Positions 3,395-11,862 of a DNA stretch of 64,000 nucleotides are shown here, piece by piece. Below the pieces are notes generated by a model, which worked only from the letters and a program-made list of their open reading frames with translations, had not been told where the DNA came from and searched no databases. The stretch comes from Eledone cirrhosa (lineage: Eukaryota), in NCBI GenBank assembly GCA_964016885.1, contig OZ024742.1, forward strand, positions 365,304,001 through 365,368,000, written 5' to 3'. Position 1 is the first letter of the stretch, and each line of letters opens with the position of its first letter. The translations under genes were made by a program, and so were the position numbers.

Positions 3395-3695
3395 GTGCAA
3401 TTTATGTTTACAAGCCGAAATTGCCTCAGATTTTTTGTTTAAGATGTGGTCTGTAGCGTAGAGTATTTCCAGGGCCTCAGCGGCGCAGAGGTCACATGGT
3501 CTTTTATTTCCGTTATACGATCTAGCCCTAGCTAGGATCTCCCAGTGTAACTTTTATTGGGTGTGGTTGTCTTTTAGACTCCAGATATAAGCTGAAAGTG
3601 ACGTCATATTCCTTCTTAGAGGGTAACGAAAAGAATGGGTATGCATGTAAAGACGCTGCTTGAAACTATTGGCGGTTAACCCTATGTAGGCCCTA
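3395..3695 (-). pseudogene. Penelope-like GIY-YIG endonuclease fragment (left arm copy)
   Basis: [71 protein letters not shown], with one internal stop. Confidence 0.88.
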
Positions 3696-4813
3696 ATATA
3701 TATATATATATATATATATATATATATATATATATATATATATATATATATATATATATATATATATATATATATATACATATATATACTTATATATATA
3801 TATATATATATATATATATATATATATATATATATATATATATATATATATATATACATATATATACTTATATATACATATATATACTTATATATACATA
3901 TATATACTTATATATATATATATATATATATATATATATATATATATATATATATACATACATATATATATATATATATATATATATACATATATATACA
4001 TACATATACATATATATATATATATTACGTTAGCCCAGAAGACAAGCTTGTACAATCTGTGTCGGTTCAAATTCATCAGCAAAGGTTGAACTTGCTCAAC
4101 TGGCTAATGAAACGCATGTAACTGGTATGACACTGTTGGAGTAACTGGCCTTTATATATATATATATATATATATATATCGACTATCGATCAATAAGATT
4201 CGAGACGTCATTCGCTTAACGAGTGGGGTGGAGCTCGTCAAATCAGACCGATGAAACAATGTTTCCATTGGTCTTTCCAATTGCTAATACTATCTGCCGG
4301 TCACAGATCCAGGCAGATTATCAAGTAATTGTAAATTAAACAACAACAATAACAACAACAACAATAAAAATACAATAGGCGAGACTCATTAGAATCGATA
4401 AACAAGGAAAACAATATGGAGAGAACATCAGAAGAAATAAACATATAAACATACTTACATAATACAAATATATATATATTTATATAAGTTGAAATAAAAT
4501 GAAAACGAAATTTCATTTCTCACTCTTAGTACGGCACTTCCTTAAATGTAAGTATGTGTGTATACGTACATACATATATGTATACAGACGTACAGTAGCA
4601 TGCATATATATATATATATATATATATATATATATATATATATATATATATATATATACATACAGGTACACATACATATATGCACGTATCAGTTTAGCGG
4701 ACGCTTATTATAACGCCGCTTTGTTCGTTTGCAAACAAACTGAAGAGCCTGAATTTTATGCCGTACGGTGTTAAGGCAACCACGTCACCTTTTTGTTCAA
4801 CACTGACACAGGA

Positions 4814-4856
4814 ACGATGTACTAGTTTCAAGCTTGTTAGCTATCATCAGCACCGT
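4814..4856 (-). ncRNA. Type I hammerhead ribozyme (array unit; identical copies 5288-5330, 5768-5810)
   Basis: Reverse complement of the motif at 6317-6359. Confidence 0.85.
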
Positions 4857-9300: not shown

Positions 9301-10549
9301 CACCGTACGGCATAAAATTCAGGCTCTTCAGTTTGTTTGCAAACGAACAAAGCGGCGTTATAATAAGCGTCCGCTAAACTGATACGTGCATATATGTATG
9401 TGTACCTGTATGTATATATATATATATATATATATATATATATATATATATATATATATATATATATATATATATATATATATATATATATATATATATA
9501 TATATATATGCATGCTACTGTACGTCTGTATACATATATGTATGTACGTATACACACATACTTACATTTAAGGAAGTGCCGTACTAAGAGTGAGAAATGA
9601 AATTTCGTTTTCATTTTATTTCAACTTATATAAATATATATATATTTGTATTATGTAAGTATGTTTATATGTTTATTTCTTCTGATGTTCTCTCCATATT
9701 GTTTTCCTTGTTTATCGATTCTAATGAGTCTCGCCTATTGTATTTTTATTGTTGTTGTTGTTATTGTTGTTGTTTAATTTACAATTACTTGATAATCTGC
9801 CTGGATCTGTGACCGGCAGATAGTATTAGCAATTGGAAAGACCAATGGAAACATTGTTTCATCGGTCTGATTTGACGAGCTCCACCCCACTCGTTAAGCG
9901 AATGACGTCTCGAATCTTATTGATCGATAGTCGATATATATATATATATATATATATATAAAGGCCAGTTACTCCAACAGTGTCATACCAGTTACATGCG
10001 TTTCATTAGCCAGTTGAGCAAGTTCAACCTTTGCTGATGAATTTGAACCGACACAGATTGTACAAGCTTGTCTTCTGGGCTAACGTAATATATATATATA
10101 TATGTATATGTATGTATATATATGTATATATATATATATATATATATATATGTATGTATATATATATATATATATATATATATATATATATATATATATA
10201 TATATATATATATATATAAGTATATATATGTATATATAAGTATATATATGTATATATAAGTATATATATGTATATATATATATATATATATATATATATA
10301 TATATATATATATGTATATATATATATATATATATATATATATATATATATATATATATATATATATATAAGTATATATATGTATATATATATATATATA
10401 TATATATATATATATATATATATATATATATATATATATATATATATATATATATATAAGTATATATATGTATATATATATATATATATATATATATATA
10501 TATATATATATATATATATATATATATATATATATATATATATATATAT

Positions 10550-11862
10550 ATTAGGGCCTACATAGGGTTAACCGCCAATAGTTTCAAGCAGCGTCTTTAC
10601 ATGCATACCCATTCTTTTCGTTACCCTCTAAGAAGGAATATGACGTCACTTTCAGCTTATATCTGGAGTCTAAAAGACAACCACACCCAATAAAAGTTAC
10701 ACTGGGAGATCCTAGCTAGGGCTAGATCGTATAACGGAAATAAAAGACCATGTGACCTCTGCGCCGCTGAGGCCCTGGAAATACTCTACGCTACAGACCA
10801 CATCTTAAACAAAAAATCTGAGGCAATTTCGGCTTGTAAACATAAATTGCACAAAACTTTCCTGTATTACAGCCCCTCGTTATACCCTAACGGATAGCAC
10901 GATCTATACGTGGATATTTTACGTCTTGATGTGGGAGCTAAGTATATGTTTTGTTTATTCCTTTACTTATTTGCATAGGTAAGTATATATTACCGTATGT
11001 TTTGTGAAGGTATGTATACCTTCTCGTACGTATATTTGACTGTTATAGCGTATAATTTTTGCATATTTTGGTATTTAGGGTTTGGCTATTTGTATACGGG
11101 AGTTTTGCGTCCACGTGAGTGTGCAGGTTCGTACATATGGTGGGTGTGTGTATATGTGTACTTCTTGTTTTAGTTGACTTACGTCTCCGAACATTCGTGT
11201 ATTTATATGTAGGTATGCGTGTGCGCTTGTTATATACGTATTTATTTATTTGTACACAAGCATACACACATAATATTTATATGTGCGTGGTTTTGTATAC
11301 CCATGGTAAGGTTTTGCGTATGCTTGTGTATGTACGTATCTGTTTGCGTGTATGTATTTATTTGTTTCTATTACTCTGTATTGTATTTATTTACTTTGTT
11401 CTTAACTCTGTAGCGGAGATTCATTTGGTCTCCTAGTTAGAATTTTAGTCTACGATTTCTGCTATACCATTTACGTGGTTTTGTCTTTGCGTGCTATTGT
11501 TCTCCACGCTCCACATATGACTTATTATCTTCGTTTTTTCGTTCATTGCCAGAGAACGTCTCTATGCGCCACCTAAGAGAACATTAGTCTACGACCTCTT
11601 TTATACCATAAACGTGGTTTTGTCTTTGCGCGTAATTGTTTTTCACCGCTCCTATTAATGACGTATTATTCGTTTTTTCCCGTTCTTTGCCAGCGAACGT
11701 TACCACGAACCAAAGTATCGTCTTCCTGTCTTCCTCCGGTTGCAACGTTTTTTGAAATATCCAGTTCTGCGTTTACAGATTGACTTTGTTAGCTTCAGAA
11801 GATCCCGTTAAGGGTGAAAGCAGCGATTCTTTGCTTAAACTTTAATCTGTTATTTTAATATA
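10550..11862 (+). mobile_element. Penelope-like element 3' end: GIY-YIG C-terminus, 3' UTR with internal ~140-bp duplication, terminal HHR
   Basis: The GIY-YIG reading continues ..CKHKLHKTFLYYSPSLYPNG*. The UTR is homologous to 17010-17965 (inverted) and 60293-60485. Confidence 0.82.
11791..11841 (+). ncRNA. Hammerhead variant with CAGAAGA core (copies 17028-17078 -, 60412-60462 +)
   Basis: ag(c/t)tt-CAGAAGA-t ccc gttaa ggg t-GAAA-gcag..ttgc-TT|-aaact. All three stems form. Confidence 0.62.

Follow-up and report, generated by a model that had tools for sequence, protein, structure and literature searches.

How a palindrome of about 7.5 kb, which mirrors both a ribozyme array and the DNA beside it, came into being is the question raised by positions 3395-10852 of a 64,000-nt stretch of Eledone cirrhosa DNA (OZ024742.1, 365,304,001-365,368,000), hereafter the window, within which all positions are counted. 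As the original prediction had described, two near-identical inverted arms (3395-6195 and 7848-10852) are present in the assembly, with 0 differences over the 302 nt of the GIY-YIG piece and 0 over the 466 nt of the locus-specific flank segment. The length of the long (TA)n block, 330 nt in the left arm and 464 nt in the right, is the sole difference between the mirrored flanks. We propose, with a rough probability of 0.55, that the palindrome is a young head-to-head retrozyme array, which was formed during integration driven by Penelope-like elements (PLEs), by DNA synthesis running past the insertion point.

The features of the locus are collected in Table 1. The predicted layout of 3.6 units on the minus strand, a switch point and 7 units on the plus strand was found at 4484-6195 and 6202-9629, and the predicted numbers of sense ribozymes (7 cores on +, 3 on -) are correct, a geometry which any head-to-head array would give. 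The segments that had been called unique occur as a whole only at these two places, but they are made of old repeat pieces. Both arms are tailed at the 3' end and followed by identical flank; the duplicated flank comprises 1,223 nt (9630-10852), with its inverted copy at 3395-4483, and the centre of the palindrome is asymmetric, with a loop of 1.65 kb. Outside the TA tract, nine of the ten full retrozyme units are identical and one left unit carries 2 substitutions. The left arm likely duplicates, in inverted orientation, the final 3.6 units of the right arm together with 1.2 kb of adjoining DNA. Since the paralogs of the left-neighbour repeat continue into sequence that is missing from the window, some loss of left-side DNA is likely as well. 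The right arm (6202-9629) falls 4 nt short of seven full turns, and a single four-variant haplotype is common to all its units, the pattern expected from rolling-circle copying of one circular monomer; the family's other arrays are mosaic, unlike this arm.

Table 1. Features of the palindrome and its borders, in window positions
Feature	Position	Strand	Remarks
Left neighbour: old high-copy repeat, cut off at the junction	3029..3387	-	85-92% identity to paralogs
Outer junction: 10-nt local tandem duplication and 3-nt microhomology	3377..3397	.	Microhomology common to the old-repeat paralogs and the inverted arm
GIY-YIG fragment, inverted copy, ending 45 nt before the ORF stop	3395..3695	-	0 differences vs 10551-10852
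Long interrupted (TA)n block, inverted copy	3696..4025	.	134 nt shorter than the right copy
Locus-specific flank, inverted copy	4026..4483	-	Found in full only twice in the assembly
Left retrozyme arm, 3.6 units, tailed 3' end at 4484	4484..6195	-	Hammerhead core starts 5804, 5324, 4850
Left arm TA tracts, from the centre outward: 17, 21, 18, 27	4484..6195	-	
Switch point: 12-nt templated repeat from both arm ends, 6-nt insert at 6196-6201	6183..6212	.	Single genome-wide match
Right retrozyme arm, 7 identical units, tailed 3' end at 9629	6202..9629	+	Cores 6323, 6797, 7281, 7767, 8247, 8735, 9221
Right arm TA tracts: 18, 23, 24, 21, 25, 24, 48	6202..9629	+	
Example type I hammerhead	6783..6845	+	Intact core, GUA triplet
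Original locus-specific flank, patchwork of old repeat pieces	9630..10087	+	Whole occurs only at 2 places in the assembly
Original long interrupted (TA)n block	10088..10551	.	
Resident 5'-truncated Hydra-like PLE copy: GIY-YIG C-terminus with in-frame stop, plus 3' UTR	10552..11858	+	

Judged from its sequence, the repeated unit of about 480 bp (474-540 nt per unit) is a type I hammerhead non-LTR retrozyme, which is predicted to cleave itself. Each unit carries an internal (TA)n and one type I hammerhead, which has an intact core, a U-U at the base of stem II and a minimal stem III closed by a palindromic loop; in the example at 6783-6845 the proximal stem I measures 6 bp. The units are tandem, non-coding and low in GC, with 10 hammerhead cores in the focal array, and belong to a dispersed multi-copy family that has no ORF of its own; the only frames of at least 80 aa in the unit are driven by TA. 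Core and stems are conserved across 169 copies from the fetched loci, where the core bases are nearly invariant and covariation is slight because these close relatives are too alike. A search of Rfam returned a weak HH9 match (E 0.13, below the gathering score) and no match in the unit at the gathering score, and the minimum found by single-strand folding was not the hammerhead fold (z -0.85). At least five other types of hammerhead-like motif are scattered through the window, at 13705(+), 16625(+), 27194(+), 27713(-), 40747(+), 42896(-)/43048(+), 49037(+) and 60878(-), and the stretch 42788-43155 is a head-to-head hammerhead pair by itself.

Head-to-head inversion is the normal behaviour of this retrozyme family. 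Genome-wide, 1,911 candidates and 419 exact 3' ends (tail plus TA) were found; 79 loci were selected by an intact 3' end and 20 further loci by similarity. Among the 79 terminus-selected loci, BLAST revealed a head-to-head inverted core segment in 36, an inverted TA-rich part is possible in 22 more according to a loose, unvalidated motif test, and 21 have none. The insertions possess one tailed terminus, which runs into TA, while the other end usually lies about 64 nt earlier, and the tail-less ends fall within 7 nt of each other at 39 of the 49 TA junctions counted. With a head-to-head inverted 5' copy, a tail at one end and an AT-rich target, these are insertions of PLE type, and the originally suggested tie to the 5' inverted structures of PLEs is borne out by the inversion in 36/79 loci, the insertion into (TA)n and the two preferred 3' ends about 64 nt apart. 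According to the available text of a previous study, the PLE protein PAc cuts and extends both strands and has two adjacent RT start sites (PMC11167929), and the retrozyme termini, by analogy, would fit these two start sites and two-strand extension. In 24 of the 36 inverted loci it is the inverted arm that exceeds the tailed one in length. With 10 ribozyme units the focal array stands against at most 4 at any of the 79 loci, and the similarity-selected L030 holds 12. Whole insertions with their flank form higher-order tandem repeats at L030, L058 and L084, and four retrozyme termini with the same flank are located at 3.38-4.40 Mb of contig C20.

The GIY-YIG pieces, which had been predicted to cap the palindrome, are incidental rather than termini, and belong to a separate, stop-interrupted Hydra-like PLE copy. 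The left fragment does end the palindrome, stopping inside the ORF, but the right one runs on for about 1 kb to the 3' end of its family near 11858, and only 10552-10852 of this resident copy is inside the palindrome. It is a 5'-truncated member of a separate young family (959 candidates, 99% identity), which ends at one of the two 3' ends of that family. In a longer copy, L035, a C-terminal GIY-YIG domain with a CxCX5C linker and flanking CxxC and CxH motifs can be read from the ORF; Pfam gave no match for L035 or for the focal GIY-YIG fragment. The 3' 1.3 kb of a copy of this family yielded no hammerhead core. At the loci L033-L044 the family favours two 3' ends, which are separated by about 85 nt and each continue into (TA)n. 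Another, diverged GIY-YIG ORF of a PLE is present at 12197-12652 (+) (Pfam GIY-YIG, E 0.007), and an inverted copy of the Hydra-like 3' UTR (88%) at 17004-17969 (-). As well, at about 5000-5420 of L044 an older retrozyme unit, in inverted orientation, directly adjoins a 5'-truncated Hydra-like copy, and this fusion hints at machinery common to both RNAs.

That fusion, involving the same PLE family, speaks for the original proposal that a PLE mobilised the array as cargo. In such a case, the Hydra-like PLE would have been primed at its own 3' end (about 11858) on a read-through RNA from a donor, brought flank and array along, and placed a very large 5' copy beside them in inverted orientation. 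An authentic 3' end of that family does mark the end of the right arm, and the pLTRs of PLEs can mobilise host DNA in trans, as stated in the accessible part of an earlier report (PMC3846280). However, the assembly contains no donor, which makes cargo mobilisation unlikely: the flank occurs only here, and the in-frame stop and the other private changes of the focal PLE copy recur in 0 of 14 other copies. Moreover, the left arm breaks off within the ORF, about 1 kb before the PLE 3' end, at neither a PLE terminus nor TA, and the PLE 3' end shares no sequence with the retrozyme unit beyond TA. Mirrored flanks also occur at four other loci, where no PLE fragment and no GIY-YIG is present. Transport as cargo is, accordingly, very improbable, and the flank, found nowhere else in the assembly, is taken as target DNA.

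The recurrence of mirrored flanks was assessed at 98 of 102 fetched loci (4 were dropped by a filter). Of 7 nominal matches, five (5/98) proved genuine on inspection; that at L114 was rejected as a simple repeat and that at L115 as an older retrozyme copy. Mismatched control pairs (n=9,506) gave 107 matches at >=14 nt and 40 at >=25 nt (0.4-1.1%). The focal locus and L057 had been chosen for their two tails, so the unselected rate is 3/79, plus 0/20 among the similarity-selected loci. Apart from the focal palindrome (1.2 kb), a mirrored tail-side flank is present at L057 (83 bp), L064 (113 bp), L088 (about 70 bp) and L106 (about 55 bp), which makes the focal duplication ten times longer than those at the four other loci. 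In all five cases the copied flank adjoins the tailed end and abuts the inverted arm directly. The outer junction falls in a TA run at the four shorter cases and not at the focal palindrome. The flank of L064 is locus-specific, with 99% identity between its two copies and at most 87% elsewhere, and its inverted arm holds unit sequence that is missing from the tailed arm. L057 is the second outward-facing terminus pair in the census, which covered 319 of 432 matches and may have missed such pairs on C4 and later contigs; its shorter arm also carries the shorter TA tracts. Two of four double-tailed loci (L062 and L131) are devoid of a flank duplication. Three nominal direct flank duplications were set aside as lying in simple repeats, although that at L089, a short one, may be real.

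As a mirrored flank occurs at four other loci, none of which carries GIY-YIG sequence, it is likely a recurring by-product of integration, generated by fold-back or copy-through DNA synthesis and closed by microhomology joining. A more general statement, that PLE-driven integration has a recurring alternative outcome in which the flank of the primed 3' end is duplicated in inverted orientation over 55 bp to 1.2 kb, seems to us about evenly balanced between right and wrong.

The palindrome is confirmed at the level of the assembly, where no empty-site allele was found. Could its left arm nevertheless stem from a fold-back or chimeric read? Such a read would equally leave 0 differences over 768 nt and the mirror register. 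In runs X1, X2, X4 and X5, 0 of the 32 read pieces listed (of 7,127) bridge the left junction at 3394/3395, where matches are swamped by paralogs, none of the pieces listed for the flank bridges a junction, and in RAD run X21 only repeat pieces were covered. X2, X4 and X5 did not show the private allele at 3554, and in X1 its depth was no more than that of a divergent contig, suggesting that the X1 sample may be another individual or that the records were filtered. A contig of X1 matches the flank at 9969-10087 without differences. As a weak hint of an artefact, the flank contigs of X1 have a depth of 9.5-10, like, and not double, the 9.6 of the private allele in the single-copy left neighbour; one copy of the flank in the X1 sample would give such a value, but the depth of a contig does not measure copy number and is too weak to stand in for it, and the sample is without one private allele of this locus. 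A fold-back read sits badly, however, with the asymmetric centre and its 1.65-kb loop, with templated repeats at both junctions, with an outer end joined to a chromosomal neighbour, and with arms that differ by 2 substitutions and a 134-nt difference in the TA block. The same design is also found at the four other loci, three of which have substitutions between their flank copies. We consider an assembly or library artefact quite improbable.

We infer the enzymatic steps and their timing from the observed architecture, register and junction sequences and from the recurrence at other loci. First, a PLE endonuclease/RT would cut an AT-rich site, prime cDNA at the tailed 3' end (9629) and copy seven turns of one monomer variant. 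The 3' end of the cDNA may then self-anneal via a microhomology of a few bases, which would leave the templated repeat at 6183-6212 and the 1.65-kb loop. Subsequently, synthesis would proceed outward, lose TA repeats by slippage, cross into the attached flank and copy it, the GIY-YIG piece presumably being copied merely because it lies within. Finally, microhomology would let the end be joined to the chromosome on the left, leaving a 10-nt templated duplication and probably deleting some of the DNA there. Microhomology and short templated repeats are seen at both junctions, and the presence of a tail at both ends, compared with one tailed and one tail-less end in most family members, is counted in favour of this course. 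The left TA tracts (17, 21, 18, 27) match the last four right tracts (21, 25, 24, 48) in rank and are all shorter, in a comparison of n=4 for which four registers were tried and another gave 0.8. Together with the contracted long block, this rank order suggests one copying pass from the right arm. Against the proposed course count the double-tailed loci L062 and L131, which lack a mirrored flank, as well as the outer junction of the focal palindrome, which lies outside TA, and the tenfold greater length of its duplication.

Alternatively, an ordinary head-to-head insertion might have been extended into the flank by a later template switch during replication or repair, promoted by the hairpin-prone array and the TA tracts. 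The outer junction indeed resembles microhomology-mediated repair in non-TA DNA, arrays of the family do rearrange after insertion (for example, into the higher-order repeats of L030, L058 and L084), and this genome is rich in other palindromes. The copies of array and flank seem to be of the same young age, however (2 substitutions in 10 units, 0 in 768 nt), the tail-side flank is the one duplicated in all 5 cases, and the left arm is tailed, whereas ordinary inverted arms mostly are not. We regard two such separate steps as rather unlikely, and prefer synthesis past the insertion point within one integration event. For the family at large, the longer inverted arms in 24/36 loci and the extra unit sequence in the inverted arm of L064 indicate that simple fold-back cannot be the general route of inversion. 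Such loci need RNA-templated second priming or the later deletion of central sequence, so that copying may have run in either direction. On the same grounds it is equally possible that, in the short cases, the left target end copies the flank inward and then jumps to the RNA.

It was also originally suggested that transcripts from both directions form kilobases of dsRNA, which mask the ribozymes or feed RNAi or ADAR, and the structure might be kept for this function. From the coordinates, a duplex of about 2.8 kb could form, in which a plus transcript would leave 3-4 ribozymes free and a minus transcript could mask all 3. The chance of such a role appears extremely small, given that the structure is nearly mutation-free and therefore too young to show selection, that it sits in a nest of broken repeats, and that similar smaller hairpins exist at many loci of the family. 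Further palindromes in the window (61357-62065, 18055-18713, 15836-15959 and 48926-49132), with arms 74-96% identical, may be older inverted insertions. Positions 1-1370, 21403-23453 and 53676-55732 presumably represent broken LINE-type reverse transcriptase copies, the latter two being 85% identical to each other.

If the recurring outcome is real, an inverted target-site duplication would mark a DNA-templated step of the PLE cycle, and retrozymes would steadily give rise to palindromes of host DNA, in a few per cent of their insertions. The formation of tandem and inverted PLE insertions has been called an open problem in the available text of a previous study (PMC8557442). A young family with more than 400 countable 3' ends, two defined termini and a mirrored-flank class places sequence-level constraints on the second-end step, and also yields a prediction open to testing with the in vitro PLE system already established. 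Further support, of a structural kind, comes from the tail signature for the proposal that PLE proteins move animal retrozymes.

Several parts of this locus have known counterparts, namely the retrozyme, the PLE-type inversion and the Hydra-like fragment, whereas the mirrored target flank as a recurring outcome appears to be new; in the part of the literature covered, no report of inverted target-flank duplication was found for PLEs or retrozymes. Metazoan non-LTR retrozymes, as described in the accessible text of two studies (PMC7229834; 10.64898/2026.07.22.740005), have been proposed to be non-autonomous derivatives of PLEs, and likewise consist of non-coding, low-GC tandem units in dispersed arrays, each with one type I hammerhead. 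The minimal helix III with a palindromic loop resembles that of the dimer-acting salamander ribozymes in these studies, and hammerheads with a short helix III in metazoan non-LTR retrozymes are reported to cleave as dimers (PMC7229834). The unit analysed here differs in its length of 480 bp with an internal (TA)n, against 150-450 bp, and the head-to-head arrays, the tail and the mirrored flanks were not met in the descriptions given there. Similar to the Hydra-clade PLEs, as far as the available text describes them (PMC8557442), the Hydra-like family has a C-terminal endonuclease, CxCX5C, CxxC/CxH motifs and (TA)n targets, the relatives of the fragment being about 700 aa long; the focal copy is, in contrast, a dead 5'-truncated piece, and the designation Hydra-like rests on motifs.

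As for the inverted 5' copies and the tail of PLEs, the accessible parts of previous studies (PMC8557442; PMC3846280; PMC11167929) describe the same head-to-head inversion, one-end tail, (TA)n targeting and two adjacent 3' ends. The retrozyme tail is longer (about 64 nt, against 30-40 in described PLEs), and the focal palindrome differs from them in being tailed at both ends and in an inverted copy that includes host flank. Insertions of L1 with an inverted duplication, attributed to self-annealing 3' ends, provide a precedent (10.1101/2024.12.14.628481). In the part of that report available, local-inversion or fold-back insertions likewise join a TPRT insertion via short microhomology to an inverted duplicate of target DNA. 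Those events are somatic and human, with the inverted duplications on the reciprocal end, whereas here the flank on the primed side is copied, recurrently, at insertions of a non-coding element of PLE type in an assembled animal genome.
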